The notes: generated by a model not told the origin, from the letters alone. 64,000 nt of DNA from a virus (IMGVR_UViG_3300050821_009413:81490-145489), one strand, 5' to 3'; numbered from the stretch's first letter, positions 46,411 through 62,661 are shown. Made by a program: numbers and translations.

Positions 46411-47328
46411 CTACGCCGATCGGGCGCGGCGACGCGGAACCGCAACAGTAACCGCGGTTTCAGCTGCAGGCTTCCTGCCCTTAGCCGGGTGCTTACGCTT
46501 ACTGGAAGCCTTACCGGCGACCATTTCTGCCGTCTTCTCCAGCTTCGCCAGCAGATCGCCCACCTCTTCGGCGGCTGCGGCTTCCTCACGTGGGGTCATC
46601 GGAACGCCGGTCACTTTCGACTCGATCAGTTCCTCAACCCTCGCCGCGTAGGTGTCGACGTGCGCGTCTTCCTCGAAGGAGGCGGTCATGTCGTCCACGA
46701 TGCCGCCCAGGATCTTCACGTACTGCCTACTTGGTGTGACTTCGCGCCGTAACGACTCGAAATCGGCGTTACGCAGATCTTCTGGCCACATCAAGTTCTG
46801 CACGACCAGCACTTTGTTGCCGCGGACCGTTTCGGGCCGCAAAGCCGCTAAGTGTGTTTTGCTGCGCAGCGTATACTGGATGATCCCGGATTTGCCTTTC
46901 TCTTCCAGCACGGCCAGCAGTGTGGCGTACGCTTCCTCGGTCTGCCGGGGGCTGGGGCTGGACAGGTCAGGCTCGAGAAAGTAGCTCTTCTCTGAGAACA
47001 GAGGGTTGATGAGAGCGGTTTCAACGAAATGCTGCACGTCGAGGGTTCTGCCGCAATCCACCTGAACCTGCTCCAGCTCCTCATCTGTCAGCAGGATCGT
47101 TTCGCCGTCGCGTACCACGCCGCGGGTGGTTTCGCCTCGGCAGCTTGCTCCGCAGTCCTCGCAGATGTACGGGGCTTTGATCCGTGACTGGGTGCCGTCG
47201 TCGTGGACGTGGAAACTGTTGAATTCCACGCCCCGGTCGCCGGATGTTGCGTACATTTTGACTGGGCAGCTGACCAGTCCGAGGCTGATCGCGGTGTTCG
47301 CTATCGAACGTGTTGGTGTTGGTGCCAT
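46411..47328 (-). CDS. ku: Ku-like DNA end-binding protein
   Basis: The N-terminus NTAISLGLVSCPVKMYATSGDRGVEFNSFH is a typical bacterial Ku core, about 300 aa, with a basic Lys/Arg C-terminal tail. Confidence 0.8.
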   Translation of the reverse strand: MAPTPTRSIANTAISLGLVSCPVKMYATSGDRGVEFNSFHVHDDGTQSRIKAPYICEDCGASCRGETTRGVVRDGETILLTDEELEQVQVDCGRTLDVQHFVETALINPLFSEKSYFLEPDLSSPSPRQTEEAYATLLAVLEEKGKSGIIQYTLRSKTHLAALRPETVRGNKVLVVQNLMWPEDLRNADFESLRREVTPSRQYVKILGGIVDDMTASFEEDAHVDTYAARVEELIESKVTGVPMTPREEAAAAEEVGDLLAKLEKTAEMVAGKASSKRKHPAKGRKPAAETAVTVAVPRRRARSA

Positions 47329-47601
47329 GTGTTTTCTCCTTCCATAATACTAATTATACGCCATCTGGCTAGTATAATCAAGTCACAATATCCACGTCTA
47401 TTTCGTGCGATTCGACAGTGGTGGTGCGGCCAGCGCCCGGACTGGTTTGCAGCTGCAAATACCGCGGAAGCGGCGTGCCGCGCTCCCACTCCTCGGCCCA
47501 CTCCCACGCCGCTTCTTCGTCGGTGAACACTTCCGAACCGAACCCGTCAACCACGGGCGGTTTGTCGTCAATAACCCAGGTGACCGTCCAAACGGTGACT
47601 T

Positions 47602-48096
47602 TCATCGCAGTGTGGTCCCCGGCCCAGGCCTGACGCCGCAAGCACGCACCTTGCCGTCCGTCCCCATATGCACATGAGACGCGGACGTTACCGGCGCATG
47701 CTGGTATGTTCCCGCCGGCGCATCGCAGAAAAACACCGAAAACTGCGGCACCTGGTACGGGTTGTACCAGATGAGCGCGTCCAGCCCGGTCGGGTTCGCG
47801 ATCCAATCATGGTCGGGTGCTAGTTCGCCGATGATCCATGCGTGGACGTTTTTGCGCCGTTCACGCAGGACACGTTGCCTGCCGTTCTCGCTCACCACGA
47901 ACCTGGCGTTATACAAGGCGATGCTGTCGGCGTGCGCGATCACCTTACCCGCGTCCGGACCGTACACAGCCGTGATCGACCAACACTCAGGGGAGCTGAT
48001 CTTACGGTGCACTTTCACAAAATCCACCATTGAACGACCGCGGAAAGGCCGCACGTTCAGTGACCGCGACGTATCCACATCAGAGGTATCCATCAT
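47602..48096 (-). CDS. hypothetical protein
   Basis: 164 aa. Confidence 0.4.
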   Translation of the reverse strand: MMDTSDVDTSRSLNVRPFRGRSMVDFVKVHRKISSPECWSITAVYGPDAGKVIAHADSIALYNARFVVSENGRQRVLRERRKNVHAWIIGELAPDHDWIANPTGLDALIWYNPYQVPQFSVFFCDAPAGTYQHAPVTSASHVHMGTDGKVRACGVRPGPGTTLR

Positions 48097-48257
48097 TTCC
48101 GTTCCTTTCGTTATCCCAGCGACGCCTGCAACAGGCCGCCGCGTATTCGCATCCGTTCGAGCAGTAATCCGATCCCGGTAAGCAAACGAATATTTTGCAC
48201 ACTGCGCATTTAGGCGGTCTGGGCGGCGCTATCGGTGCCGGCTTCACGTTGTTCCTC

Positions 48258-48395
48258 TCTCTAGTGTTCCAGGATTATTCGTTGTCGTTTTTTCGGGCAC
48301 CGCTGACACTCGTCGGTGTAGCGGGTGTAGATACCAGGAAAGTCGATTTCGGTCACCCAGTCGTGCCCACGGAACAGGCACAAGAGCCTACGAAT
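48258..48395 (-). CDS. possible small Cys/His protein (45 aa)
   Basis: Hand-translated MIRRLLCLFRGHDWVTEIDFPGIYTRYTDECQRCPKKRQRIILEH, below the ORF-track cutoff and downstream of a palindrome copy. Confidence 0.25.
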
Positions 48396-48414
48396 CATCG
48401 TTATCCTTTCAAGT

Positions 48415-48486
48415 CATGCGTTCAGCTGAGCGCATCAGCCAACAGACGTTGCAAGATGCAACGCCCGCTGGAGTCATACTCAGATG
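48415..48486. repeat. composite nested-palindrome element, copy B
   Basis: CAGCTGAGCGCATCAGCCAACAGACGTTGCAAGATGCAACGCCCGCTGGAGTCATACTCAG. Confidence 0.55.
48448..48462. promoter_or_regulatory. GTTGCA-N3-TGCAAC palindrome
   Basis: gttgcaagatgcaac. Confidence 0.4.
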
Positions 48487-48698
48487 TGTTGGAGGCCCGG
48501 CGCAGGAGTTCGCTACGTTCGCGCTCACATGTCCTACAAGCGCGGTAACGGTCATTGCGCCCTTTGCTTCACTGTGCCCTTGAAAATCACTAGCGCCAGC
48601 AAGGCTGCTCGGTGAAATTTTCGCAGTATCCCCGGGAACAAAAATGAACAAACAAACCAGGGCAGTACGCTTAACGCCAGGCCTCCAAGTTCCCTTTC

Positions 48699-49037
48699 CT
48701 ATTGGTTTACAGCCGGGATGATCTGATATATGCCGCCGGCCTCTTCCCATTCGGCGGTTTCTCGTGCCGTCCGCTGTTTTTCCCGCCGTTCCTGCATGTA
48801 TACGCGTTCGGCTTCCCGGCACACATCACAATCGCACTGATATGTGGTATATCCGGTTAGCCCGTGCTTCTCCGGTGGACACTCTGTGCGTGCCCGCCAT
48901 TCCGCGATCTTAGTGTTGCGGCGTTTCTTCTGGCATTTGGATGAGCAGGTGATTGGTGGTGCGCCGGGTCGGCGTTCCACCGTGAACACGTCGTTGCAGA
49001 CCACGCACACGCGGGTCTTGGGCCACTTCCGCTTACC
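48699..49037 (-). CDS. zinc-finger protein
   Basis: The internal start MGKRKWPKTRVCVVCND...CSSKCQKKRRN...CDCDVC gives several Cys pairs. Confidence 0.4.
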   Translation of the reverse strand, partial: GKRKWPKTRVCVVCNDVFTVERRPGAPPITCSSKCQKKRRNTKIAEWRARTECPPEKHGLTGYTTYQCDCDVCREAERVYMQERREKQRTARETAEWEEAGGIYQIIPAVNQ

Positions 49038-49409
49038 CATCGTAGGCCAGCCGTGTTGCTGCCACGTCGAAAGCGTGTGTCGCCTGCCCCAGCCGGTATT
49101 CCCGGCAGTCATCGCACCAGCAGTCGAGGTCGGCCAGGTAGCCGCGTGCACAGTTAGCGTCAGCGGGCTGCATGTCGGCCAGCGGACGGCCAAAGATCCG
49201 CGCCGCACAACGGCTATCCATCACACCTATTTTCTTCCAACTCGATGAGGTATTCGACAGCGATAGCCAGGTTGGCTACGGCGGCGAAAGGGCTGCCCAG
49301 GTTCTCACGGGCGGTGGTGTGGAACTGGCGTGCCTGATGCACCAGGTACTTGTTGGTCACGCTGTCTCCGTCTTTCTTCATCGCTTCAATCCTATCTCGT
49401 CAAGTCACT

Positions 49410-49727
49410 TCAGTCGAGGCCGAGGATTCTGGCTGTCGCTAGTTTGTCCTCGGCCCGATCCGCCGCCATCAGAGTGTACTGTTCACCGTCGAAAAGCCAC
49501 GGTACGCGGCAGTCGATGCGGCTACGCCGGTCGATGGGCCTGCCGAGCACGGACTCAACCCAGTCCTTGCCGCGGCGTTCGATCACACTCAACGCCGTTT
49601 GCAGCACATAAGGATCAACGAACCGTGCCCTGGATCGGTGGCCGTGCGCCCGCAGCTCCACCAGCGCCCGTTCGGGGAGTCTGGTCCTGCCGGTGTCGGG
49701 TGCCGGTTTTTCATGCCGTCGCGGCAT
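49410..49727 (-). CDS. hypothetical protein
   Basis: 105 aa. Confidence 0.4.
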   Translation of the reverse strand: MPRRHEKPAPDTGRTRLPERALVELRAHGHRSRARFVDPYVLQTALSVIERRGKDWVESVLGRPIDRRSRIDCRVPWLFDGEQYTLMAADRAEDKLATARILGLD

Positions 49728-50142
49728 GTCTTTGTCCTTTCAGCATGAAGCCGACTAATGCTACCGCGTCAGCTTGGGTTTCCATGCGCCCGTAGTCGTC
49801 GCGGTCGTCGCCCCAGGTGGTCTCTTCCACATACCATGGGCGTTCGTCCGCGCCGAGGATGTCGTTGGCGGGGCTGGACGGGAACCGTTCGATGCGGAAC
49901 TTGCGTTGCCGCTGCTCAACCCACACCACGGGCAGTTTCTTCACCCAAACGGCGGGTAGGTTAGCGACCGCTCCTTTCGGTGTGCGCTCCGTGAACGTCG
50001 GTAACGGTAGGTAGTCCCCGAACGGGTCCACAACCTCAATTCCGGTGTCCTTGATCCTGGTCCATGTGGTGTCCAGTTGGCGGCTGCGCCGGAACAGCGC
50101 CCGTCCGGCGGCGTGCATCGGCGGCAAACTCATCAGTCCCAT
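49711..50142 (-). CDS. hypothetical protein
   Basis: The start was chosen at MGLMSLPP after the RBS GAAAGGA. The longer ORF runs into the palindrome element. Confidence 0.4.
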   Translation of the reverse strand: MGLMSLPPMHAAGRALFRRSRQLDTTWTRIKDTGIEVVDPFGDYLPLPTFTERTPKGAVANLPAVWVKKLPVVWVEQRQRKFRIERFPSSPANDILGADERPWYVEETTWGDDRDDYGRMETQADAVALVGFMLKGQRHAATA

Positions 50143-50170
50143 TTGTTGTTCCTTTCTGTTGTGTTGGTTC

Positions 50171-50245
50171 TGCGCGCTGAGCGCATCATCCAGCGGGTGT
50201 TGCAAGATGCAACACCCGCTGGGGTTGTGCTCAGATCATTCAGCG
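50171..50245. repeat. composite nested-palindrome element, copy C
   Basis: GCGCTGAGCGCATCATCCAGCGGGTGTTGCAAGATGCAACACCCGCTGGGGTTGTGCTCAG; the inner 32 bp form a perfect inverted repeat. Confidence 0.55.
50199..50213. promoter_or_regulatory. GTTGCA-N3-TGCAAC palindrome upstream of gene 49711-50142
   Basis: gttgcaagatgcaac. Confidence 0.4.
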
Positions 50246-51354
50246 GGGATGGCTTCGACCGCTAGCTGCGCGGCCCGGATCCGTTCGTCGCTTTCGTGTT
50301 TCAGTTCGGCTAGTTGCCTCGCGAGTTCCTCGACGTCGAGTTCGCCCGAGTTGTGTCGCCACTTCTCGTACTCGGCGGCGTCCTCCCGCGCCCAACGTTC
50401 GGCGTCAGGGTCGGTGGCTTCGGCTTCGAGCCGGCCTTCCCACGCGTCTCGTTCGGCCCGGTCAGGTACCCAGCACTGGCAGGTCTCGACGGTTTCGGTG
50501 CAGTCCATGCACAGTTCGCATCGGTCGCAGAATCCGCGTGAGTCGATCAGTCCCTCTTCGCACCAATCGCAAATGTTCCAGCCGCCTTCTTTCTTGTCGT
50601 CGCCGACCGCCATTTCGTCGTCGTACGGGTCGTTGCCGTCGTCCGCGGTGCCTTTGCCGGTTTTTCTGTTGCCGATAATGATCGGCCAGTCGTCATCGTC
50701 CCAGCCGCTGGCACCGTAACCGTAGCCGTACATGCCGATACCGGAGGATGCGGACCTGGAATAGCGGTAGTAGGCGCGCTTGTAGTCACCGTTTGAATGC
50801 CAAATCCCCGTTTCAGGGTCCCACTGCCCCAGCGGCTCGTTGATGATGTACGCCGAGTACTCATACTGCGGGGCGACGGTGAGGATGACCAGCTTGTTGC
50901 CGGTGCCGCAGAACTGCGTCAACGCTTTCTGCACCCCGGCCTTGTCGAGGTTTTTGAATTGGGTCGGCAGGATTTCGTCGGCGAAAACCCGCGTGTCCGA
51001 GCGATCGTCGGCCTTGGACCACGGCTGCGCGGACGGTTGGGTGAACACCCCGTTGTGCCCGACTACGGTCAGCTCGCAGTCGCCCACCACGAACGGGTGA
51101 ACGTTGTCGAGTTTGATGCTGCCGTGCGTGGCCCACCTCGAGTGGAACAACGCGGGGCCGAGCATGTTCTCTTCCCGCGCGGCCTTGAAATCCCTGATCG
51201 CTGTTTCTATCCACAGCGATTTGCCTGTGATGATTTTTGTTCCGCAGTCAGCGACGATCGCCCAGCCGTGACCGTCTGGGTTGTTTCTACCGCCGTTGGT
51301 GAGGCCTTTTTCGTCCACCGCAGTGTTCGGTGGCAGATAACTTAACATGCACAT
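50236..51354 (-). CDS. Ntn-hydrolase / class-II glutamine amidotransferase-like protein with C-terminal Cys-rich zinc module
   Basis: It starts MCMLSY with a Cys2 nucleophile. The module HGWAI...HSRWATHG...NVHPF is present. The C-terminus carries CDWCEEGLIDSRGFCDRCELCMDCTETVETCQCW. Confidence 0.65.
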   Translation of the reverse strand: MCMLSYLPPNTAVDEKGLTNGGRNNPDGHGWAIVADCGTKIITGKSLWIETAIRDFKAAREENMLGPALFHSRWATHGSIKLDNVHPFVVGDCELTVVGHNGVFTQPSAQPWSKADDRSDTRVFADEILPTQFKNLDKAGVQKALTQFCGTGNKLVILTVAPQYEYSAYIINEPLGQWDPETGIWHSNGDYKRAYYRYSRSASSGIGMYGYGYGASGWDDDDWPIIIGNRKTGKGTADDGNDPYDDEMAVGDDKKEGGWNICDWCEEGLIDSRGFCDRCELCMDCTETVETCQCWVPDRAERDAWEGRLEAEATDPDAERWAREDAAEYEKWRHNSGELDVEELARQLAELKHESDERIRAAQLAVEAIPAE

Positions 51355-51424
51355 ATTTGTGTGCTCCTTCCCGGTACTAGATGTACCGCCGTAAAAAAGA
51401 ATGTTTTGTTGATGTATGCGCCTT

Positions 51425-52825
51425 TTAGCCGAGCGTTACCCAGTTCGTGGCCCCAGCGGCAGTGAGTCGCTCGCGTTCACCGTTGCCGTCCACGATGTAG
51501 TAGTAGTTGCCAGCCAAGTTGAACCGAATCTCGTCCGAACGGCGGCGGCGGGGCCGAGGCTCCGGCGGGGACCACCTGTTCAGCGGCTCCTTCTTACCGG
51601 TCAACAACTGCGGAGGCGCGAGCCGCATAATCTCGGTGTACAAGTGCTTGTAGTTACGCCGTTGCACCCAGTCAGTGAAATGCCGCCACGTCAACGCGTT
51701 GCGGCGCAACACGTCAGCGGTCGTCATGTTCTCGGTGTAGCGCACCGACGCGTCAGCGAACTCCAACGCCGCCATGAACTCCGGGTACTTAAGTGTGGCT
51801 TTGAAGAACCGCAACTCGAACGTCCGTTCGTTGTTGCAGTTCACCGCAACATAACGGGAGTCGTTGTAGCGGTCACCAACATCGGTGGCTTTGCGCTTCA
51901 ACTCACCAGACACCGGTTTGCGGAACGCCGCGTAGCGTTCCGAGGTGCGCCGCGCCAACAGTTCCAACTCCCGGGCGTGCCGGTACATGAACAGCAGCCA
52001 CAGCATTTGATGCGACTTCGACTGCTTCCCGTCGTGGATGAACGCGTTGCGGGAAACGTGGACATGCAAACCGTAATGGTCGTCCACCCGGCAACGGACA
52101 CGGCGCAGCGAGGCCAGCAGTTCCTCGAACGGGTACTGGCGGGCGAACTGCAACGTCATCGGATGCGTCACAATCTCGGCACCGGAGATGGACCCGTCTT
52201 CCTTGAGGTAGAGGTGGGTCTCGTCGGCGTCAACGGTGCGTGTTGTTTCGGCGATGATCTGGCCGCGGCGTCCGCCGACTTCCAGTTCGACGCCGAGCAG
52301 CGCTTCAGCCGGGTAGTTCCCTTTCGGTTTGAAGTGCCGCGGTCGGTAGTTCCATGCGTGGATACCATAGTTGCCTGCCGCGTAGGCGCGGTCACGCCGA
52401 CTTGAACTGTCGGCGCAAGGCCCGCACGTGGCGCAGTTGTAGGTGTCGCATTCCTCGCAGTGAGTGCATTCGTCGCGGTTGTACGCGCCGCCGCAATTGT
52501 GGCAGATCACTTCAGGGCGTCGTGGCACAGTGCGTCTCCTTTCTTCTGTTCGTAAGCGCGTTCCCAGCAGTATTGCTGCCGCGTTGGTGAGACGGTTAGG
52601 GGTACTTATGACCGCCGCAGTTTCATCTGCCAGTGCAGATGTCCAGCACGTGCATTCGATGCTTGCTTCGCCGCAGTCGTTGCAGGTGTTACAGTTGTTG
52701 CAGTAGCCTGCGGGGATAATCTCGCCCATCCCGCAGTACGCGCAGCAATTAGCATCTGCCACCGGCTCCCACGGCCAGCCCCAGATGCTTCTGCTTGAGC
52801 GCGGCGTTATCCCTATCTCTGGCAT
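51425..52825 (-). CDS. amidoligase (glutamine-synthetase/GCS2-like, Amidoligase_2-type) with N-terminal Cys-rich zinc module
   Basis: It shares HLYLKEDGSISGAEIVTHPMTLQFARQYPF...GLHVHVSRNAF...LWLLFMYRH...FELRFFKATL with two paralogs. The start was chosen at 52825 after an AAGGAG RBS. Confidence 0.6.
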   Translation of the reverse strand: MPEIGITPRSSRSIWGWPWEPVADANCCAYCGMGEIIPAGYCNNCNTCNDCGEASIECTCWTSALADETAAVISTPNRLTNAAAILLGTRLRTEERRRTVPRRPEVICHNCGGAYNRDECTHCEECDTYNCATCGPCADSSSRRDRAYAAGNYGIHAWNYRPRHFKPKGNYPAEALLGVELEVGGRRGQIIAETTRTVDADETHLYLKEDGSISGAEIVTHPMTLQFARQYPFEELLASLRRVRCRVDDHYGLHVHVSRNAFIHDGKQSKSHQMLWLLFMYRHARELELLARRTSERYAAFRKPVSGELKRKATDVGDRYNDSRYVAVNCNNERTFELRFFKATLKYPEFMAALEFADASVRYTENMTTADVLRRNALTWRHFTDWVQRRNYKHLYTEIMRLAPPQLLTGKKEPLNRWSPPEPRPRRRRSDEIRFNLAGNYYYIVDGNGERERLTAAGATNWVTLG

Positions 52826-53125
52826 AGCACTTAGTTTCTCCTTTCCCCTGGTCGGTCGGATCAATGTTGAACCGGGAGATTGTTCCTCCTGGAAGCGCCG
52901 GAACGAAGACGGACACAACACGTCGCACCGCTCTGACGCTTTCAGCAGGACCGGGCATTACTGCCCGGCCTCACCGGATCGCTTCAGTTACACAACGATC
53001 AGGAACACAGCTGCAACCATGACGACGACGATCGCCGCCAAGATTGACCAGCCGATAAGTTTCCCGAGTTGATCTATCGGGTTGTCAGTTCCCTGCGCCA
53101 TACCCGTTCTCCTTCCCTGTTGTTG

Positions 53126-54049
53126 TTAGGCGGGGAGTTCCACGCTGTGCGCGGCTTTCATCGCCTCGTAAGCGCGTTCCCAGCAGTCGCAGTCGTCGTT
53201 CTGGAGCTTGCCGCAGTCCTGGCAGGTTTCGCAGAATTTGCAGTAACCCATCTTGTTGACCTCGCCCATCCCGCAGAACGCGCAACGCCAATCCAGTTCA
53301 TCGGCGCTGCTGCCGATGAACACCTCCGCGGATTCCTCCGCCGATTTGGCCACATTGGCACCCATCATGCCGTCTTCCTGCTTGATCCACGTTTTCGTCG
53401 CCGAGTCATAAACATGAACCCCGTTCCTCGCCGAGACCGTCGCCTTAGATTTCGACTGGTTACGCAGCCACCGCGGCAACGCCTCCCGATAATCGGAGTT
53501 CGAATGCCACAAACCGGTTTCTTGGTCCCACTCGCCCAGTGACGCGTTAATAAGGTACGCGCTGGACTGGTAACGCGGGTCGACGGTGAGGATGGCCAGC
53601 TTGTTGCCCAAACCGCACCACTTCGTCAACTCCTTTTGGACACTAATTTTGTCCAGGTTCGCGAACCTGCCGGGCAGCACTTCGTCGGCGAACTTCCTGG
53701 TGTCTGAACGGTCATCACCCTTCAATGGCTGCGCCTCAGGTTTAGTGAGGATACCGTTGTGCGCGACCACCGTTTTGTGGCTCCCGCCGACGATGAACGG
53801 ATGAACGTTGCTGACGCTGACGCTGCCGTGCGTGGCCAGCCGCGAATGGAACAACGCCGCACCATCATATTTTCGGCGGGCTTTGATGAAACTCTCCAAC
53901 GCAACCTCAACTTTGAGGTCGCGGCCCATGATTATCATCTCTTTGTGGGCGATGGCCCAGCCGGACCCGTGTGGATTGGAGATGCCGCCGTTCAGCAGGC
54001 CGTCTTCGTCCACATCGTGGCCCGGCGGAAGGTAACTCAACATACACAT
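53126..54049 (-). CDS. Ntn-hydrolase / class-II glutamine amidotransferase-like protein (paralog) with C-terminal Cys-rich zinc module
   Basis: MCMLSYLPPGHD...HGSGWAIA...HSRLATHG closely parallels 50236-51354. The C-terminus carries CAFCGMGEVNKMGYCKFCETCQDCGKLQNDDCDCW. Confidence 0.65.
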   Translation of the reverse strand: MCMLSYLPPGHDVDEDGLLNGGISNPHGSGWAIAHKEMIIMGRDLKVEVALESFIKARRKYDGAALFHSRLATHGSVSVSNVHPFIVGGSHKTVVAHNGILTKPEAQPLKGDDRSDTRKFADEVLPGRFANLDKISVQKELTKWCGLGNKLAILTVDPRYQSSAYLINASLGEWDQETGLWHSNSDYREALPRWLRNQSKSKATVSARNGVHVYDSATKTWIKQEDGMMGANVAKSAEESAEVFIGSSADELDWRCAFCGMGEVNKMGYCKFCETCQDCGKLQNDDCDCWERAYEAMKAAHSVELPA

Positions 54050-54080
54050 ATAGGTGCCTCCGTTCGTTTTGTTCTAGGTG

Positions 54081-55010
54081 TCAGGATTGTTTGAGGATTT
54101 CGCGGTAAAGGTGCGTGTAGTTGTGCTTGAGCACCCAATCGGTGAACTGGTCCCACCCCAGCGCGCGGCCCTTCAAAACGTCCACAGCTGACAGGTTGCT
54201 GGTGTATTTCACCGACGCGTCGGCGAACTCCAGAGCCGCATAAAATTCCTGCTCATCCAGTGTGGCTTTGAAGAAGCGAAGCTCAAACGTTTCCCGGTTC
54301 TGGCAGTTCACCGCCGTGTATCGGGGCGTGAGGTTCCTGTCGCCTTTCGCTTGTTCCTTCAGCACACCCTTGCGGGGTTTCCGGAACGACGCCCACTCTT
54401 GCGATGACCTGCGGGCCAGCTTTTCGAGTTGTTCACTGTTTCGGTACATGAACAGCAGCCACATCATTTGATGGGCATCGGATTGCTGTTTGTGCGTTCG
54501 GTAAGACTTTTTACGGAACGCGTCACGCGCCACATGAATATGCAGCCCATAGTTGTCGTACACGCTGGACCCTGAAAGTCTCAGGTTTTTCAGCAGTTTC
54601 GAGAACGGGTACTGCCGCGCGTATTCCAGCGTCATCGGGTGCGTAACGATCTCCACACCGCTGATGCTGCCGTCGTGCTTCATGTAGAGATGGTCTTCAT
54701 GGGCGTCCACCAGGTGCACCGCGTCGACTATCTGGTCGGCCAACCCGTAGACTTCCAGCTCCACACCCATCATCGTTTGAGCTGTATCGCCCTTAAATAG
54801 CAGGTGTGGCCGGTAGTCGTAACTGTGGACGGAGCCATGTTCGGCGTCCGAGCAGCAGCAGCAGCTTTCGCAGTGCCCGTTGTCGCACATACCGAAGCCT
54901 TCTACCCAGCCCCTGCAGTCTTCGCAGTGCAGTCTGCCGCAGTCGGCGCAGCGTTGCATGTAATCGCGGGTGTCTTCGTAACCGCAGACCCGGCACTGTA
55001 CCATCGGCAT
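54081..55010 (-). CDS. amidoligase paralog with N-terminal Cys-rich region
   Basis: HLYMKHDGSISGVEIVTHPMTLEYARQYPF...GLHIHVARDAFRK...MWLLFMYRNSEQLEKLARR...FELRFFKATL. Confidence 0.6.
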   Translation of the reverse strand: MPMVQCRVCGYEDTRDYMQRCADCGRLHCEDCRGWVEGFGMCDNGHCESCCCCSDAEHGSVHSYDYRPHLLFKGDTAQTMMGVELEVYGLADQIVDAVHLVDAHEDHLYMKHDGSISGVEIVTHPMTLEYARQYPFSKLLKNLRLSGSSVYDNYGLHIHVARDAFRKKSYRTHKQQSDAHQMMWLLFMYRNSEQLEKLARRSSQEWASFRKPRKGVLKEQAKGDRNLTPRYTAVNCQNRETFELRFFKATLDEQEFYAALEFADASVKYTSNLSAVDVLKGRALGWDQFTDWVLKHNYTHLYREILKQS

Positions 55011-55142
55011 AAGCTGAACCCTCCTTCCTTTTTGTTCACCAATTGCCGCCCAAAAGGGTTTGGGCGGGGCGACGCTCGGGCGACACCATGAGCAGCACCG
55101 ACCCTTTCGGGCCGGTGCTGCCGCGTGCTGGCGCTCAGCATT

Positions 55143-55157
55143 GTTGCAAGATGCAAC
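55143..55157. promoter_or_regulatory. GTTGCA-N3-TGCAAC palindrome upstream of amidoligase 54081-55010
   Basis: gttgcaagatgcaac. Confidence 0.4.
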
Positions 55158-55159
55158 AA

Positions 55160-56271
55160 CTAGTCATCGACGCAGCGTTTCAGGATTTCCGCGTGCAACA
55201 TCGGGTAGTCGTTGTCCGCGGCCCACTGAGTGAACACATCCCACGACAACGCCGCGCCCTTCAACACATCCGCAGACGACAGGTTGCGGGTGTATTTCAC
55301 CGACGCGTCGGCGAACTCCAGCGCCGCATAAAACTGCGACTTCCACAACGTCGACTTGAAGAACCGCAACTCGAACGTGTTCGAGTTCAAGCAGTTAACC
55401 GCAACATACCGTTCGCGGCCACGGTCACCTTTCGCCTTGTTCTTCAACTCGCCCGGCGCTGGTTTGCGGAACGATCCCCAACTGTCCGACACCCGCCGCG
55501 CCAACTTTTCTAGCTGCGTACTGTTTCGGTACATGAACAGCAGCCACAACATTTGATGCACATCGGACTCCTGCTTACGTCCGCGGCGCGCACCATTCTT
55601 GCGGAACGCGTCACGCGCCACATGGATATGCAGCCCATACCCGGACGACACCCGGCACCCGGCGCTACGCAAACCAGCCAGCATCGGCTGGAACGGGTAC
55701 TGCCGCGCGTATTCCAGCGTCATCGGGTGCGTCACAATCTCCACACCAGAAATGGAGCCGTCCTCTTTCATGTAGAGGTGGTCCTCGCTGGGATCGATGC
55801 TGTGAACCACGGGCACGATGCTGCTTTGGTTGCCGCCCACTTCCAGCTCGACGCCCATCATCGTTTGGGACCGGTCGCCTTTGAACACCAGTTCCGGACG
55901 GTAGCTGGCGTAACGGATAGCGCCGCGCTCGTCGTAATAGTCGCTGTCGTCTTCGCAACAATCGCAGCAGTCGCTGCAGTGATACTCGTCGCATCCGCTC
56001 ATCCCACAGCAGTAATACTCGCAGCAGGAGTCGCAGTACGACAGGTCGTCACGCCAGCCGCGGTGCCCACAGTTCTGGCAGTCGGCCCGCTCATCGTCAC
56101 ACGATTCGCAGTACCCGTCGCCGCTGATACCGCAGAGGCTACGGTTGTGGCAGACGCTGTCGCCGCAACTGTGGCAGCTCACCAACTCGTCAGGGTCAAC
56201 ATATTCGAGGCACGTTTGGCAGCGTTCTAGCAGCACTTCTTCTTCGTCGTCCGCCAAAACAATAGGCATAG
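55160..56271 (-). CDS. amidoligase paralog with extremely Cys-rich N-terminal region
   Basis: The same conserved core is present. The N-terminal 120 aa hold about 35 Cys. The start was chosen at 56271 after an AAGGAA RBS. Confidence 0.6.
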
Positions 56272-56303
56272 GGGTTCCTTTCATTTTGTTCCGGAAATAT
56301 GGC

Positions 56304-56318
56304 GTTGCATCTTGCAAC
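56304..56318. promoter_or_regulatory. GTTGCA-N3-TGCAAC palindrome 33 bp upstream of amidoligase 55160-56271
   Basis: gttgcatcttgcaac. Confidence 0.4.
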
Positions 56319-56594
56319 GCGGTGCCGCGTCCCGAGCGACACCACCGGCAGGCACCAGAGAACACCTGATGCCGCCGAGTTGTGCTCGGAAAACGGGGGT
56401 TAGCCGGCGGCCAGCAGGCCGTTATCGGACGCGTCGTCCACCATCACATCGAAGAACAGGTCATCGTCGGGATACGTCATCTCAGCCCAACCGAGGAAGG
56501 GGATGACTTCGAGGTTCTCCCGTTCAACGGCAGCGTTAATACCAACACGTGTGTTCGCCATGTTTTGTTGCCTTTCCAGTGTTTTGTCGATTCT

Positions 56595-56609
56595 GTTGCA
56601 ACATGCAAC
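56595..56609. promoter_or_regulatory. GTTGCA-N3-TGCAAC palindrome
   Basis: gttgcaacatgcaac. Confidence 0.35.
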
Positions 56610-56730
56610 ACCTGTTTCCGTTTCATGTTTGAAACAGGCTTTGTTGAAGTGGGCATATTCCCACTATCTACAATAGTAACATAGTCAAGTCCACTAGTCA
56701 ATGGTCACGATTAAATCAGGTTAAAACACC

Positions 56731-57129
56731 TCACTTTCCCGCCGCGAACTCCGCATTCAACTCAACAACCTTCTCATTAAGACGCCCCTCCATCTCAGCC
56801 AACGTCAACTCCACCCGCTCCGGAACACGATGCGGCCAAATCTCATCACGAAACTCCGCCGCCAACCGCATCCGCAAATTCAACGCATCCAAACCATCCC
56901 CAGCATCCACAGGAACCTCCTCCCACAAAAACTGGACAAGCGCCTCATCCCGGGCACGCACCGCATCCAACCCCAGCCACACCGGATTCACCCGCTCGGC
57001 AGCCCGCTCAATCGGCGACAACTCAGCCATCTCAGTCCTCCTCCCATCCGGGGATACGTTCGATCTCAGGTATGCCCATTTCCTCCCATAACGGCAGGAT
57101 CGAAGGGTTGTCGTCGCAAGCTGCCACAA
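56731..57129 (-). CDS. hypothetical protein
   Basis: 132 aa, helical. Confidence 0.4.
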   Translation of the reverse strand: MWQLATTTLRSCRYGRKWAYLRSNVSPDGRRTEMAELSPIERAAERVNPVWLGLDAVRARDEALVQFLWEEVPVDAGDGLDALNLRMRLAAEFRDEIWPHRVPERVELTLAEMEGRLNEKVVELNAEFAAGK

Positions 57130-57574
57130 TTTCGTAATGCCGCGTCAAATAGCGATATATCCGCCGCTTCACCGACACATCCGAATGAGTCAAACCATCC
57201 GGACGCATAATCGGACCGTCATACCCAACAGGCAAATACAAAGCACGAGGGATGGCCAACAATTCCGGCAACAAGTAATCATCCAACCATCCTGCACTGG
57301 TCTCATAGTGGCGCTCCATTCTAGCGGTGACAACGGCAATTACTTCGCCTGCCGCATAATGCCGACGGCAGAACTCCAACGCCTGTTCATTAGGCGGGCA
57401 ATGCCGCGACGCTGCGTGAAAAGCGTCGAAGTCTTTCACCGGTCCGCTTACGTAATGGCGGATGGACGACACATTCACTAACGACCCGTCCATATCGGCG
57501 ATCACCGCCTTCAATCGGCGCGGTTGCCGGGCCGCCTGGTACAGCTGCCGTACATCATCCAACTCTGCGCTCAT
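57032..57574 (-). CDS. HAD-superfamily hydrolase/phosphatase
   Basis: VIADMDGSL is motif I (DxDGT/S), VVTAR is motif II, and CDDNPS is a motif IV-like DD. Confidence 0.55.
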   Translation of the reverse strand: MSAELDDVRQLYQAARQPRRLKAVIADMDGSLVNVSSIRHYVSGPVKDFDAFHAASRHCPPNEQALEFCRRHYAAGEVIAVVTARMERHYETSAGWLDDYLLPELLAIPRALYLPVGYDGPIMRPDGLTHSDVSVKRRIYRYLTRHYEIVAACDDNPSILPLWEEMGIPEIERIPGWEED

Positions 57575-57680
57575 CGATCCTCCTTTCGTTTGTTCTGGTC
57601 ACCAGGGCCACATCGCCCGATCACGCCCGATCCTCGCCTAGCGTAGTAGCCCTGGTCGTTGCCGCGAGGTCGACCAGCTT

Positions 57681-57695
57681 GTTGCATCTTGCAAC
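57681..57695. promoter_or_regulatory. GTTGCA-N3-TGCAAC palindrome upstream of HAD hydrolase gene
   Basis: gttgcatcttgcaac. Confidence 0.4.
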
Positions 57696-57923
57696 GAATT
57701 CGTTTGAACACGTCAGCCATGGATCGGTGCTCTCACCACCGATCCATGAAGCCGAGTTCACCACTAGTAATTCCACCTTGCCGGTACAGGCCACGACTCT
57801 CCGGTACAGTCCGCCGCGTCTTCTAGACTCGTGTGACCCACTGCAACTCATACGGAGCGTCCGGGTAGAGCTGCTTGATAGGACGATCGCAGTAGTAACA
57901 CCTAGCCAACTGCTGCTGTTCGG

Positions 57924-58418
57924 TCACGCGATCCACCTTTCGATCCTTGTCCACTTCGAGGTGTCCCACGGCCAGTGATACACCCACGCCCGCGTACCGT
58001 TCCCGGTGATAACGATGGACCGCATGTAGGCGTCCGGGTGACCTTCGATCCGGTCAAGGACCGCGAACCCCAAATCCGCCTCACCCTCTTTCATGGTGAC
58101 GGTGTAGCCGGGAACAGTTCCGGGTTCGGTGATCACCGCGGCAGGGAACCCCAGCGTGGTGTCATACAACTGCCCGACAACCGTGTCCAGCGTGACCGCC
58201 GCGGCGAACTGTTCAAGCGAGGGCCATCGGTTCTGGCCGGGGCACAGCGTGCCGTACACAAACACATCCCGGACCTCACCGTCAGCCAGTACACGTTCCA
58301 ACTGGGCAGCGCACTCTTTGTAGACGAGGCCGGAAGGGCTACGCTCAATCAACGGGGACGCCCTTCCGCGCCATTCTGTTATCAGCTGTTCAAGGTGAAC
58401 CGCGCTTATCGCACTCAT
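57924..58418 (-). CDS. gamma-glutamylcyclotransferase-like (AIG2/GGCT family) protein
   Basis: VFVYGTLCPGQNRW matches the GGCT YGTL-x-x-G motif at the N-terminus of a beta-barrel domain of about 150 aa. Confidence 0.55.
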   Translation of the reverse strand: MSAISAVHLEQLITEWRGRASPLIERSPSGLVYKECAAQLERVLADGEVRDVFVYGTLCPGQNRWPSLEQFAAAVTLDTVVGQLYDTTLGFPAAVITEPGTVPGYTVTMKEGEADLGFAVLDRIEGHPDAYMRSIVITGNGTRAWVYHWPWDTSKWTRIERWIA

Positions 58419-58666
58419 GACTTGCGTCCCCTTTCGCCGCTGAACAGTTCCTTCGCCTTGGCGGTGTTCAGCTCTCCCATCTCGGCCATCAGGCGGAACG
58501 CCTCGGCCATCATCGCGCGTCCACGCAACGCTGCCCGAGTCTCCTTCTCGTAGTAGAAGGTGTGATCGGCCTCCAGGTTGAAGTGAAACTCGGCGCGGGC
58601 GAAGATCTCCCTGAGTTCCTCCAACTCGACGCTGGCCGACCGCTTGTCCGACTTGTCACTCATCAT
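58415..58666 (-). CDS. hypothetical protein
   Basis: 83 aa. Confidence 0.35.
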   Translation of the reverse strand: MMSDKSDKRSASVELEELREIFARAEFHFNLEADHTFYYEKETRAALRGRAMMAEAFRLMAEMGELNTAKAKELFSGERGRKS

Positions 58667-58711
58667 CGTTCACGTTCATTCTGTTCCCCTTTTTCATCGC
58701 ATTGTTGGTCT

Positions 58712-58726
58712 GTTGCATCTTGCAAC
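58712..58726. promoter_or_regulatory. GTTGCA-N3-TGCAAC palindrome upstream of 58415-58666
   Basis: gttgcatcttgcaac. Confidence 0.4.
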
Positions 58727-58879
58727 AGGGGTGCTCAAACACGCCACCGACAGCATCAGCGCTCTCACCGCTGATGCTGTCGAGTCGAGTTCAGTACCGC
58801 GGAAACTGCTCCGGCTCAGCTTCGTCCTCGCCGAAGATTTCGTACAGCAACCACTCAGGCGTCCCCTCGTCGTAGGGGT

Positions 58880-59098
58880 TCATCGCGGCTCAACCTGTGC
58901 GTTGCACTTCTGGTACGGGGTGTGCCAGTAATCGCCGCCGACCACGATGCCCCCGTGGCCATGGAAATACTGAGTGCGGTACACGTAGTCGCAGACGATG
59001 CCGTGCGGACAACGCACCTCGTTACTCATGCGGGTTTCCGCATCGTCCCGAACAGCGTCGGAACCGGCACAGTGGTCAGCAACCCTCGGCGCAACCAC
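58880..59098 (-). CDS. hypothetical small protein
   Basis: 72 aa, Cys/His-containing. Confidence 0.3.
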   Translation of the reverse strand: MVAPRVADHCAGSDAVRDDAETRMSNEVRCPHGIVCDYVYRTQYFHGHGGIVVGGDYWHTPYQKCNAQVEPR

Positions 59099-59166
59099 TC
59101 AGCCCGACGCGCCTTCAACTCCTCCAAATTCACGGTATTGAAGTTCATTCTTGTTCCTTCCGTCGT

Positions 59167-59181
59167 GTTGCATCTTGCAAC
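59167..59181. promoter_or_regulatory. GTTGCA-N3-TGCAAC palindrome upstream of 58880-59098
   Basis: gttgcatcttgcaac. Confidence 0.4.
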
Positions 59182-59279
59182 GCCCAAAGATTTTGGGCGC
59201 AGTTGTCCCATTAACTACATACTACCATGTCAAGCCTCACTAATCAAGAGGCCGGACATGAACGTCGTAACCGCAGCGA

Positions 59280-59789
59280 TTAGGGCGCGACGTGGCCCCA
59301 TCGTTTGCCGTTGAGGATGCGCGTAACCGCAGTTCTCCCGACACCGAAGCGGTCGGCAATTTCGTGCTGCAAAAGCCCGGCTCTCCGCAACTGGATCATC
59401 TCCCGCACGTCCGCCTCGGTAATTTTCGCAGCGTGATGCCTCTCTCCTTGACGACCCGGATTTCTGTTTCGCCCGCGCATATACATATCGCGGACATTGT
59501 CCGCCTGGGTCCCCAGTTCTAAATGCGCCGGATTCTGGCAAGGGGGATTATCACAACGGTGCCGAACTTTGTGCTCCCCAGGGTCACTTCCCGTCGCAAA
59601 ACGCCACGCTAACCGGTGGGCCTTTTCGCAAATCGTATTTCCATTAAAATCCTTGCCGATAAACAGCGATCCATGCCCGAAATTTTCGGTTAATCCAGTC
59701 CACGGCCAACACTCGTCTGGACCACGCTTCTCGACCCTGGTCCAGTAGCGGGCCTCAATCGTTGGACTCAAGACGGCAATCTCCCGCAC
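59280..59789 (-). CDS. HNH endonuclease (HNH_3-like) with C-terminal helix-turn-helix
   Basis: ICEKAHRLAW...HKVRHRCDNPPCQNPAHLELGTQADN is the HNH motif. The C-terminus LLQHEIADRFGVGRTAVTRIL is HTH-like. Confidence 0.6.
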   Translation of the reverse strand: MREIAVLSPTIEARYWTRVEKRGPDECWPWTGLTENFGHGSLFIGKDFNGNTICEKAHRLAWRFATGSDPGEHKVRHRCDNPPCQNPAHLELGTQADNVRDMYMRGRNRNPGRQGERHHAAKITEADVREMIQLRRAGLLQHEIADRFGVGRTAVTRILNGKRWGHVAP

Positions 59790-59791
59790 GA

Positions 59792-61000
59792 CTACACACC
59801 TTTCACGTTAAGAACTTGGCGCAGAGTCGTAACCACCGTCACCAAGTCCTTAGCGTCCTCGATAATTTGGTCAATGTCTTTGTAGCAGGCGGGGATTTCG
59901 TCGATCCACTCCGCCCCGTGCCGATACTCAATACCAACCATCGCCGCAGCGAGATCAGCCTCAGTGAACCGCTTCTTAGCCTCGGTCCTGCTGAATCTCC
60001 TCCCAGCACCATGAGGAGCACTGTAAAGGCCATCCGCGTTGCCAGTCCCCGACACCACATAAGAACGGGTCCCCATACTTCCAGGTATAACGCCCTTTTT
60101 GCCTTCGGAGGCATTGATCGCGCCTTTCCTGGTCAGCCATACCCGCTCTCCGTCTATGTGCACAGGTTCCGTATAATTGTGGTGACAGTTTATTCGCTCA
60201 ATTTCCACGCGCTGCGCCTGCACACCCAACCACTGCGCGAACACATGGATGAACCTGTCCATCATTTCATCACGGTTGAGCAACGCGAACGTCTGCGCCC
60301 AATGCAACTCGTTGATGTAGTTGTCGAACTCCGGTGTGCCCTCAACCAGGTAGGCCAGGTCACGGTTCGGCAGCGCCGGCGCTGTTGCATCTTGCAACGT
60401 CGACTGCAACGCGATCTTGATGTGCTTCTGCGCGATCTTATTACCCACACCACGGGAACCCGAATGCAGAAACAACCACACATTACCCTCGGCATCGACA
60501 CACAACTCGATGAAATGGTTACCACCACCCAACGACCCGAGCTGCTCCATCCACTTAGGCGAATGCGACAAATCGACGCCCGTATCCACCGCCAACCTCA
60601 TCAACAACTCATGCCGCTTACGAGTAAACGGAAACCGCTGGTTATCCTTATTGTAATTTCCTGGCGACAACGGGATAGCATCCTCAATAGCCTCACGCAA
60701 CGCGGGCAGAGATAAAGAACGCTCGAAATGGTTATCGGAGTACAAGTCAATTTCGCGAAACCGTGTCTTTACTGCAGACATTCCGCAGCCTATATCGGCT
60801 CCAACCGCGGCGGGTATTACTGCGCCTTTTGTTGGAATAACAGTGCCGACGGTAGAGCCTCGTCCAAAATGAACATCTGGCATTACAGCAATGTGGGGGA
60901 AGACGAATGGTAGCTGAGCTGTTTGCCTAACTTGTTCTACGGCCTCCGGCTCTATCTCTCCGGCAAAATTCTTCACATTCTGCGCTATAAAACGTGGCAT
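59792..61000 (-). CDS. rtcB: RtcB-family RNA ligase
   Basis: MPDVHFGRGSTVG...GADIGCGM...GGGNHFIEL...HSGSRG...PHGAGR are canonical RtcB metal- and GTP-binding motifs, including the His-guanylation site. Confidence 0.85.
   Translation of the reverse strand: MPRFIAQNVKNFAGEIEPEAVEQVRQTAQLPFVFPHIAVMPDVHFGRGSTVGTVIPTKGAVIPAAVGADIGCGMSAVKTRFREIDLYSDNHFERSLSLPALREAIEDAIPLSPGNYNKDNQRFPFTRKRHELLMRLAVDTGVDLSHSPKWMEQLGSLGGGNHFIELCVDAEGNVWLFLHSGSRGVGNKIAQKHIKIALQSTLQDATAPALPNRDLAYLVEGTPEFDNYINELHWAQTFALLNRDEMMDRFIHVFAQWLGVQAQRVEIERINCHHNYTEPVHIDGERVWLTRKGAINASEGKKGVIPGSMGTRSYVVSGTGNADGLYSAPHGAGRRFSRTEAKKRFTEADLAAAMVGIEYRHGAEWIDEIPACYKDIDQIIEDAKDLVTVVTTLRQVLNVKGV
60384..60398. promoter_or_regulatory. GTTGCA-N3-TGCAAC palindrome inside rtcB coding sequence
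   Basis: gttgcatcttgcaac encodes TLQDAT in RtcB. It may be a coincidental or internal site. Confidence 0.25.
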
Positions 61001-61152
61001 TGTTGGACCTCCTGGGTGAGAAGCTCGACGTTATCCACCATCGTTCCGTCGTCGTCCCATTCGGATAGTTGTTCGATCGGATACATTTTGTTCTCCTTGT
61101 TGTTGTCTGTTCGGTTCTGGTTGAGTTGAACCGGACAGTCTAGCGCGGAATC

Positions 61153-61167
61153 GTTGCATGTTGCAAC
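61153..61167. promoter_or_regulatory. GTTGCA-N3-TGCAAC palindrome
   Basis: gttgcatgttgcaac, followed by a covarying hairpin. Confidence 0.4.
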
Positions 61168-61250
61168 GTTGCGTCCTGGCGACGCGCGGCCCAGCACCGG
61201 TCACCCTCCGGGACCGGTGCTGGACTGTAGGTGTCAGGACGAGTCAGAGT
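61168..61250 (-). terminator. hairpin plus CTGTAGGTGTCAGG box at 3-prime end of gene 61244-61573, abutting the palindrome
   Basis: CAGCACCGGTC-ACCCTCCGG-GACCGGTGCTG stem-loop, then GACTGTAGGTGTCAGGAC. A homologous element at 63012-63090 has a different but still self-complementary stem. Confidence 0.4.
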
Positions 61251-61573
61251 ACCCGCAGTAACCCAGTTTCGTCACGAACCGGCTGCGGGCCGTTGTATTT
61301 ACCGTCGTCGTCGGTGTAATCCTCGAGGATCCCAAGTATCCGACTCACGCCGACGCTGGCGGTACCCGGACGGGGCGAAATCAATTTCGACGCGAGTGTG
61401 AGGACACCGCGGATGTAGCCGGCCAGCTCCTCCGTTTCGGGATCATCGGTTTTTTCGGGGCCGATCTTTTCGATGCACGGTTTGAGTAGCGCGCCTACGG
61501 TCTCGGCTAGGGAGATCTCATCGAGTGTCGCCTCGAGGACAACATTGAGAGATGTTACTGGTCGATTCATCAT
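61244..61573 (-). CDS. hypothetical protein
   Basis: 109 aa. Confidence 0.4.
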   Translation of the reverse strand: MMNRPVTSLNVVLEATLDEISLAETVGALLKPCIEKIGPEKTDDPETEELAGYIRGVLTLASKLISPRPGTASVGVSRILGILEDYTDDDGKYNGPQPVRDETGLLRVL

Positions 61574-61789
61574 GACGAGAGTCCTTCTCGGATCAGGTAT
61601 GCGAGCTTCTCAATCTCGCTGAGGATGAGGTCCGCGGCGATCGAGTACGCACACGCCTTTCCGTGATACAGCCCGGCTATGTACTCGTCGTCGGTGGATT
61701 CTTCCTTTTTCTCGCTGGAGGTCGCGAGGCGGCGTAGCGTTGTCTCGCGACGGCGCAGTGACTCCAGGGCGGCGTCGAGTCTGGTGCTC
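61570..61789 (-). CDS. hypothetical protein (short start chosen, MSTRLDAALESL)
   Basis: The longer ORF has an Arg-rich, implausible N-terminus. Confidence 0.3.
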
Positions 61790-61981
61790 ATTCGTCCCCC
61801 CAGTCCAGCGAAGCCCTGTCCACGGTGCGGACGAGTCCGAGGCGTTGCTGCCAGCGCCGTGGTAGGTGGACGCCCGCGATCGTCCACCGGATACTCCACG
61901 GCTCGTAGGTGGTTTCGGCGTCGGTGCCGTCGTCGTTGACCCACTCGCACCGTCCGGTGGCGAGGATGCGTAGTCTTTCAA

Positions 61982-62185: not shown

Positions 62186-62377
62186 GTTTTACCTCCTTTA
62201 GCTTGTTGTTGTTTGGTGGGCGATTCCATGCCAGTACATGCCGTACATGGAGTCGTTGTCGGTTAGGAACCCGATGTATATGTGTTCTATCCTGCGCGTG
62301 AAACTCGGATAGAACGGCAGCGGGTGTGTTAGGACCGCTTTGGATAGGTCCGCGGTCACTATCTCGTCTGGATCCAT

Positions 62378-62660: not shown

Positions 62661-62661
62661 G

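Follow-up and report, generated by a model that had tools for sequence, protein, structure and literature searches.

Three predicted amidoligases and two class-II glutamine amidotransferase-like enzymes with Cys-rich modules in a phage gene array

Why would a phage carry three amidoligases (ALs) and two class-II glutamine amidotransferase-like enzymes (GATs) side by side, and what could these enzymes do together? The question is raised by a 64,000-nucleotide stretch of viral DNA (IMGVR_UViG_3300050821_009413:81490-145489; hereafter the window), on the minus strand of which six open reading frames (ORFs) between 56.3 and 50.2 kb follow one another in the order AL1, AL2, GAT1, a mini membrane ORF, AL3 and GAT2. 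This order had been proposed in an earlier note made from the sequence alone, and the ORF calls bear it out. Judged by sequence and predicted fold, the array would encode three ATP-dependent carboxylate-amine ligases of the glutamine synthetase (GS)/GCS2 fold and two stand-alone N-terminal nucleophile (Ntn) hydrolases. We tentatively favour a reading, to which we give somewhat less than an even chance, in which ligase and hydrolase would work one after the other on a common substrate, the first forming and the second cleaving its gamma-glutamyl-type amides.

Families, modules and pairing of the array enzymes

All three ALs exceed the 22-bit cut-off of Pfam Amidoligase_2 (PF12224), with 24.7 bits for AL1, 31.9 for AL2 and 32.6 for AL3, and all match PHROG 22302, the family of gp105 of mycobacteriophage Marvin, with E values of about 1e-86 to 1e-90 (4e-89 for AL1). 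The predicted model of AL2 has a GS/GCS2 fold, and the folds nearest to the AL are those of the small-molecule ligases YbdK, GCL, GS and GmaS, YbdK being closer than any characterised GCL. Twelve residues are invariant in an alignment of 54 AL sequences that includes the three copies (E84, E86, E120, H124, H157, H159, R162, R201, R230, N235, E243 and R245); they comprise an E-x-E strand, an H-x-H and an E-x-R motif and several Arg, and by motif shape, not superposition, they may correspond to particular residues of GS. As the family invariants are kept in all three, every AL copy looks catalytically competent.

Of the GATs, GAT1 barely reaches Pfam GATase_4, with 23.5 bits against a cut-off of 23, and GAT2 has no Pfam match at E 0.01; both strongly match PHROG 25883, the family of Marvin gp106 (E 8e-69 for GAT2), and the hidden Markov model (HMM) of the family (E 8e-113 for GAT2). 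The four-layer Ntn fold was found for the GATs. Both proteins begin with MCMLSY, and C2, the catalytic Cys right after the initiator Met, is invariant in 54 sequences. The other family invariants, R70 (HSRxATHG), N98-G99 (HNG) and D116 (SDT), align motif by motif with R73, N98, G99 and D123 of GlmS, to residues 29-108 of which the GAT profile aligns. Because the motifs coincide with the GlmS site, the pocket would suit the head group of glutamine or of a gamma-glutamyl compound in which the alpha-amino and alpha-carboxylate groups are free.

Cys-rich modules, of two types, are found on ALs and GATs alike. The AL type is N-terminal and nearly invariant in every AL of the subfamily (C-x2-C-x11-C-x2-C ... 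C-x2-C), and the GAT type is C-terminal in every GAT and has eight invariant Cys (C-x2-C-x10-C-x2-C-x2-C-x2-C-x7-C-x-C-W). No relation between the types was detected by hhalign (probability 4.6%), neither belongs to a Pfam family, and PDB matches to RING, B-box and zinc-ribbon structures were insignificant (E 0.03-0.9). A profile of the GAT-type module, run against 1.84 billion representatives, retrieved only this GATase family and one unrelated Cys repeat, with no informative fusions. The modules presumably bind zinc. A GAT-type module also stands on a ligase: the N terminus of AL3 matches the GATase-family HMM at positions 223-269 (E 4e-8), and the orthologue of AL3 in L005, a related phage on a contig of a metagenome-assembled genome, is without this module. 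AL3 thus appears to have acquired a GAT-type module, and the modules may be swappable between the two enzymes.

The paralogs are clearly diverged. AL1 and AL2 share 60% identity, AL1 and AL3 49%, AL2 and AL3 50%, and GAT1 and GAT2 48%, and the distance between paralogs is about that of each to the Marvin proteins. In L005, whose proteins are 45-63% identical to those of this phage, the genes follow in the order RtcB, HAD_PNKP, AL, GAT, three small genes, AL, GAT, an L5-gp82-like gene and Ku. In neighbour-joining trees, computed without bootstrap or other support values, AL1 and AL2 group with the first L005 ligase (L005_ALa) and GAT1 with L005_GATa, while AL3 groups with L005_ALb and GAT2 lies near L005_GATb. 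The trees would fit a history of two old, co-diverging pair lineages and a later, ligase-only duplication giving AL1, which has no GATase of its own; we hold this history as provisional because the trees lack support values.

The earlier note had taken the copies for divergent, and it had assigned them to amidoligases and class-II Ntn GATases, with a gamma-glutamylcyclotransferase-like gene nearby. All three assignments hold, the amidoligases being GS-like and the nearby gene that of a gamma-glutamylamine cyclotransferase (GGACT). The note therefore stands on both counts on which it could have fallen, since the ORFs belong to the named families and the paralogs, at 48-60% identity, are no recent near-identical duplicates. 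Its suggestion of substrate diversification is plausible as well, given that the invariants are kept, that the two pair lineages are common to the related phage and that the architecture of the Cys-rich modules varies.

To see how the genes are arranged elsewhere, we sampled 80 IMG/VR viral loci and 80 bacterial loci, one per species (~160 in all). Exactly one AL with one GAT immediately after it was found in 76 of the 80 viral loci, and the order AL then GAT is also that of mycobacterial plasmids, prophages and Nocardia. Tandem copies are nevertheless frequent: 36 of the 80 bacterial species loci, mostly from Nocardia, read AL-GAT-AL-GAT, one has three pairs and one has three ALs and two GATs. 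Single copies are thus the rule in the viral relatives, but not in L005 or in many Nocardia, which have two pairs. The loci of Nocardia and relatives (L095-L160, e.g., L099 7567-11655 and L149 2181-9413) adjoin DUF4192 and ParB-like genes; the species with three pairs is Nocardia vaccinii. The 10 Firmicutes loci have a class-II enzyme of another type, GATase_6, directly downstream of the AL. The universal unit is an AL followed by a GAT and, as arrays recur among the bacterial loci, diverged pairs in tandem have to be seen as a repeated feature of the family and not as an oddity of this phage. Clustering of the flanking ORFs for a third conserved gene gave lineage-specific neighbours only; a 124-amino-acid (aa) ORF flanks 53 loci and by eye looks WhiB-like.

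Candidate activities of the pair

If the two enzymes act in turn, each ligase would phosphorylate a carboxylate and join it to an amine on the substrate, the simplest choice of carboxylate being the gamma-carboxylate of glutamate, and the paired GATase-like enzyme would next cleave the gamma-glutamyl amide on that same substrate. Precedents would be EgtA/EgtC and PuuA/PuuD, in which a gamma-glutamyl group is put on and later taken off. The Cys-rich modules, presumably zinc-binding, would address both enzymes to the common substrate, probably a macromolecule, and the diverged copies would provide the phage with two to three specificities. DNA methylases, an SNF2-methylase, DprA, FtsK, DUF4192, a ParB-like gene and Ku lie near the AL-GAT loci; among them, DNA methylases, the SNF2-methylase and FtsK accompany the pair in mycobacterial plasmids and prophages, and DprA, DUF4192 and the ParB-like gene in Nocardia islands. 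Since actinobacterial phages, plasmids and integrated elements carry the pair as cargo, it may act on a component of the host or of the element during establishment or takeover.

Several points weigh against such sequential action. The carboxylate and the amine used by the ALs are conjectural for the whole family, and zinc binding and targeting are properties that we infer for modules with no significant match in Pfam or PDB. The residues of the GAT pocket suit free glutamine equally well and are compatible with the role of an ammonia donor. AL1 has no partner GATase, the trees behind the pair lineages are unbootstrapped, with a loose grouping of GAT2 and L005_GATb, and joint expression of a writer and an eraser would seem self-defeating unless the two differ in step or time.

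The ammonia-donor role leads to the nearest competitor, a two-subunit glutamine-dependent amidotransferase, which we consider rather unlikely. The GAT would here hydrolyse glutamine and pass the ammonia to the AL, which would turn an ATP-activated carboxylate into a carboxamide with chemistry like that of GS, GatCAB, MurT/GatD and AsnB; peptidoglycan precursors, a nucleotide-like metabolite or Glu/Asp-tRNA would be the candidate substrates. The strict one-to-one adjacency of AL and GAT, whose genes often overlap, the co-divergence of the partners, the complete glutaminase site kept in the GAT and the tRNA and RNA-repair genes in the neighbourhood all speak for such an enzyme, and GS-fold enzymes naturally use ammonia. 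However, the characterised class-II amidotransferases GlmS, PurF, AsnB and GltB are fused proteins with the GATase at the N terminus, while stand-alone class-II members such as EgtC are hydrolases, and this is one reason why we prefer sequential action. The gene order is another: AL then GAT, kept throughout, is the reverse of what a fusion with an N-terminal GATase needs, and no AL-GAT fusion was found among the 240 homologues listed. One ORF that joins the two (L023) was not counted, as it is without the first 14 GATase residues including Cys1 and likely reflects overlapping genes or a frameshift. The lack of a GAT for AL1 also favours sequential action over a two-subunit enzyme, and so does the presence of a GAT-type module on a ligase; docking of GAT to AL would hardly account for the module on AL3, which fits better with targeting to a common substrate. 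Finally, the plasmid and Nocardia contexts show no link to tRNA.

A small-molecule pathway, in which the pairs would serve to produce gamma-glutamyl amines or short peptides (polyamine, thiol or glutathione-like) or to recycle them as an auxiliary metabolic function, appears unlikely. It would explain why the closest AL folds are small-molecule ligases and agrees with the small-molecule substrate of EgtC. In LUZ24-like phages, Amidoligase_2, GATase, ATP-grasp and AIG2 genes are clustered (PMC3890496), and as the window encodes both a GGACT and an ATP-grasp enzyme of the R2K clade (1844-2905), these could provide further steps here. But the GGACT is not a conserved neighbour and the ATP-grasp gene lies 50 kb off; multi-Cys modules on both enzymes, with up to four to five repeats in Nocardia ALs, would be unusual in such a pathway, and two to three diverged pairs on one element would rather mean several distinct targets. 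It is highly improbable that the surplus copies have no separate function, as duplicates that are redundant or in decay and persist for gene dosage or as remnants of evolution: AL1 and AL2 are mutually closest and AL1 lacks a partner, but no copy has lost a catalytic invariant or a Cys ligand, each gene has a strong ribosome-binding site (RBS), the split into two pair lineages is common to a related phage with proteins only 45-63% identical, and diverged tandem pairs (~47-50% identical) recur in the 36 species loci, mostly Nocardia.

Returning to sequential action on a shared substrate, its boldest form would be a modular writer/eraser system of actinobacterial phages, plasmids and integrated elements, addressed by the Cys-rich modules, in which the ligases add and the matched Ntn hydrolases remove a gamma-glutamyl-type amide on macromolecules of the host or the element. 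Pupylation and depupylation would then have a counterpart encoded by such elements, with each co-evolving pair of an array devoted to another target, for example defence or takeover factors. We regard both the system and this parallel as improbable in that specific form.

Layout, regulatory features and surroundings

The genes and regulatory features are listed in Table 1. Each of the six array ORFs has a strong Shine-Dalgarno sequence in front of it, and our ORFs match the gene calls publicly available for these metagenomic contigs, with the exception of the start of AL3, which is called at 52528 but most likely lies at 52825. Of the contigs that encode exactly these proteins, the longest, from JGI, has 145,489 bp. 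For AL1, a start at 56365 was dropped in favour of 56269, which gives the same length as the JGI gene call P0002. No homologue of the mini-ORF was found beyond copies of the same phage. The acidic ORF has a weak counterpart of 35 aa at the same position in L005 (6261-6368; pairwise BLASTP E 2e-4), with which it shares the motif GIN...E.IP.LG; none was found upstream of the amidoligases in the other loci examined, and the ORF is limited to this phage lineage. Among 50,697 phage records, none contained DNA nearly identical to the array or to 24 kb of the window, and the relatives are recognisable at the protein level only.

Table 1. Genes and regulatory features in and around the array (positions counted from the first nucleotide of the window)
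Feature	Position	Strand	Description
GGACT/AIG2-like gamma-glutamylamine cyclotransferase	57924-58418	-	PF06094, 54.9 bits (cut-off 22.8); YGTL motif
HAD phosphatase, PNKP type	57032-57574	-	PF25109 HAD_PNKP; PHROG 415 'polynucleotide kinase', E 4e-36
Sigma-70-like promoter candidate	56673-56701	-	TTGACT-17-TACTAT with TG; in AT-rich gap upstream of the array
Palindrome	56595-56609	.	Upstream of the 53-aa acidic ORF
Acidic ORF	56400-56561	-	53 aa; directly upstream of AL1
Palindrome	56304-56318	.	35 nt upstream of the AL1 start codon
AL1	55160-56269	-	Amidoligase, 369 aa; two tandem AL-type Cys-rich modules, then catalytic domain; RBS GAAAGGAA
Palindrome	55143-55157		Just past the AL1 stop, 133 nt before AL2
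AL1-AL2 intergenic region	55020-55157	-	Palindrome and three GC-rich hairpins; folding free energy (dG) -72.5 kcal/mol, z -5.2
AL2	54081-55010	-	Amidoligase, 309 aa; one AL-type Cys-rich module, then catalytic domain
GAT1	53126-54049	-	Stand-alone class-II (Ntn) glutamine-amidotransferase-like, 307 aa; C-terminal 8-Cys module
Mini-ORF	52988-53101	-	37 aa; hydrophobic helix at the C terminus (MAQGTDNPIDQLGKLIGWSILAAIVVVMVAAVFLIVV); RBS GGGAAGGAG
AL3	51425-52825	-	Amidoligase, 466 aa; GAT-type Cys module (residues 21-68), linker, AL-type Cys module, catalytic domain, C-terminal tail; RBS GGAAAGGAG 9 nt upstream of the start
GAT2	50236-51354	-	Class-II GATase-like, 372 aa; 8-Cys module, acidic helical C-terminal tail; RBS GGAAGGAG
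Long hairpin (69 nt)	50172-50240	-	Right after the GAT2 stop; 15-bp perfect arms around palindrome 50199-50213

The palindrome GTTGCA-N3-TGCAAC had been said to precede each unit of the array. The motif itself is real and far above chance, with 14 exact copies against 0.25 expected, all within 43947-63011, a stretch of 20 kb that is transcribed leftward, and 17 sites in L005. A site for every unit, however, is not what we see: within the array, the palindrome occurs only at 56304, 55143 and 50199, none lies between 55142 and 50214, and none was found before GAT1, the mini-ORF, AL3 or GAT2 even when two mismatches were allowed. The three sites therefore bracket two blocks, AL1 alone and AL2-GAT1-mini-ORF-AL3-GAT2. 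Read on the minus strand, palindromes with a central AGA (or ACA/TGT) mostly stand ~20-35 nt before an RBS and start codon, those with a central TCT or TCA just past stop codons, and one lies inside the RtcB ORF at 60384. An operator, an RNA hairpin and a processing site are all conceivable roles for the palindrome, whose region matched no Rfam family.

The structured spacer between AL1 and AL2 may be a partial terminator or a processing site. The hairpin after GAT2 (dG -41.2 kcal/mol, z -7.2) has sister copies at 46346-46414 and 48421-48489, each straight after a stop codon; the three copies of this ~60-nt element, which has the palindrome at its core (dG -32 to -41 kcal/mol, z -4.4 to -7.2), differ by a compensatory change from C-G to U-A. 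This hairpin is probably a terminator without a U-tract or an RNA-stabilising element that closes the array. The promoter candidate is the sole promoter-like match in 49.5-59.5 kb, a count that is not above chance, and its placement upstream of the array is suggestive only.

Beyond the array, the note had placed a HAD and a GGCT-like gene near the ALs and GATs, the latter gene as part of a functional set with them. Both genes are present where it had placed them, but neither is a conserved partner, and a functional triad with them is not supported. Among the ~160 loci, a GGACT gene within 10 kb of an AL was found in this window and in L019 only, in a single-sequence phmmer search that distant AIG2 members could escape, and the HAD gene travels with RtcB: L005 and L006 both have RtcB...HAD_PNKP...AL in this order. 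The GGACT is thus a neighbour only, although its chemistry, the cleavage of gamma-glutamyl amines, is related. As it accompanies RtcB in relatives, the PNKP-type HAD more likely belongs to the RtcB RNA-repair set. Other genes of RNA repair and turnover in the window are RtcB with an adjacent HNH endonuclease-helix-turn-helix gene (59280-61000), a PTH2 peptidyl-tRNA hydrolase (38766-39317) and an Rv2179c-like 3'-5' exoribonuclease (35091-35630).

The R2K ATP-grasp enzyme, itself of amidoligase type, adjoins a cluster of four tRNA-Leu and one tRNA-Ser genes (684-1153), 50 kb from the array. A PPE-family protein (PPE and PPE-SVP C-terminal region; 15966-17186) is unusual on a phage; as it lies near a cutinase/PE-PPE-type, LysB-like gene (11549-12595) and an Rv2525c-like glycoside hydrolase (9260-10636), a Mycobacterium-like host is indicated. 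A 543-aa glycosyltransferase-like protein (12838-14469) has its best phage match, with 37% identity over 93% of the length, in the 'galactosyl transferase' of Tunturi_5, a 309-kb phage of Tunturiibacter (Acidobacteria), and a Microbacterium phage is also among the matches. A NAMPT-like nicotinamide phosphoribosyltransferase (27709-29295) and a phosphoribosyltransferase-domain protein (37912-38769) may form a phage pathway of NAD+ salvage or reconstitution. A cluster of the tellurite-resistance type consists of TerD (29378-30013), a vWA-TerF-like protein (31257-32006), TelA (32053-33393) and TerC/DUF475 (33899-34987). The remaining cargo includes an ion-transport-domain protein (39437-39889), an SPFH/Band-7 protein (36723-37652), DUF932 (42886-43953), Ku (46411-47328) and an L5 gp82-like protein (47602-48096).

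Comparison with known systems

The AL/GAT pair is annotated in LUZ24-like phages, the OM43 phages MEP401 and MEP402, phiEco32 and Marvin, and its discussion rests solely on a computational prediction from 2009 (PMC3890496, PMC10580990, PMC10945688). That analysis, by Iyer et al. (2009), concerned the LUZ24-type cluster, as cited in PMC3890496 and PMC10580990. We found no experimental characterisation of the pair in the searchable literature, and it is among the most widespread phage early-gene modules with a function, gamma-glutamyl tags or amide metabolites, known by prediction only. Our data add constraints on that function: the unit consists of AL and GAT, with no GGCT as a third member, the two seem to have diverged in step, the Cys-rich modules seem swappable and elements often hold two or three diverged pairs. 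Taken together, these constraints suggest several specific and probably macromolecular targets. If the targets were host defence or takeover factors, mobile elements in mycobacteria and Nocardia would be using covalent modification of a new class.

The early cluster of LUZ24-type phages contains COOH-NH2_lig, Amidoligase_2, GATase, ATP-grasp and AIG2/GGCT genes, with functions assigned by computational prediction (PMC3890496, PMC10580990). In the LUZ24/PaP3/tf-type Pseudomonas phages, as here, an Amidoligase_2 gene is followed by a class-II GATase and the genome holds a gene of the GGCT family. Their genes are nevertheless single copies, the GATase is much longer (486 aa) and the ATP-grasp and AIG2 genes are tightly clustered with the pair, whereas in this phage the GGACT is split off by unrelated genes, the ATP-grasp gene is distant and both enzymes carry Cys-rich modules. 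Among the ORFs of the window that were scanned, a subset of the total, none was a COOH-NH2 ligase of PF14395, in the array or outside it, and the R2K enzyme was the only ATP-grasp found, with none adjoining the array. The pair has also been noted beside genes of thymidine hypermodification, with no function assigned there (PMC8989533). We set this role aside, as the same scan gave no match to a hydroxymethylase or a DNA-base kinase.

In mycobacterial ergothioneine synthesis (EgtA/EgtC) and putrescine catabolism (PuuA/PuuD), a separate amidohydrolase removes the gamma-glutamyl group added by a ligase of the GS/GCS2 fold. The GATs are 17% identical to EgtC, which gives no membership at the sequence level, and no genes for EgtB, EgtD or EgtE are present here; PuuD is a class-I enzyme, whereas the GATs are class-II. 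On proteins, the actinobacterial Pup ligase PafA and the depupylase/deamidase Dop, both of the GS fold, form and cleave a gamma-glutamyl isopeptide on lysines. The eraser of that system is a GS-fold paralogue and that of the phage pair would be an Ntn hydrolase. Pfam Pup_ligase did not match the ALs, whose fold scores with the Pup system are below those with YbdK, GCL and GS. We found no gene for a Pup-like tag that ends in a conserved Gln or Glu; the final residues of the small upstream ORFs are G and I.

Close parallels come from other actinobacterial elements. Like this phage, the Nocardia modules combine diverged tandem AL-GAT pairs (~47-50% identical) with a mobile-element context and the same Cys-rich modules. 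They form a separate clade, though, ~35% identical to the phage proteins, their ALs have four to five Cys-module repeats and their arrays are regular, with a GAT for every AL, where AL1 is an orphan here. As the Nocardia paralogs are ~47-50% identical to each other and ~35% to the phage proteins, the expansions are independent or very old.

Marvin, a mycobacteriophage of cluster S, encodes members of the same subfamily in gp105 and gp106, which are 50-52% identical to the ALs and 44-45% to the GATs; the ligase, gp105, nevertheless bears the annotation 'glutamine amidotransferase domain protein'. The order AL then GAT, the N-terminal AL-type module and the C-terminal GAT-type module are as in our phage. 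Marvin, however, has a single pair at the end of its genome in place of three ALs and two GATs with a mini-ORF between them, and its AL is without the GAT-type module that AL3 additionally carries. The phage AL/GAT pair is thus already known, and what is new is the array of three ligases and two GATases and the module swap onto AL3.

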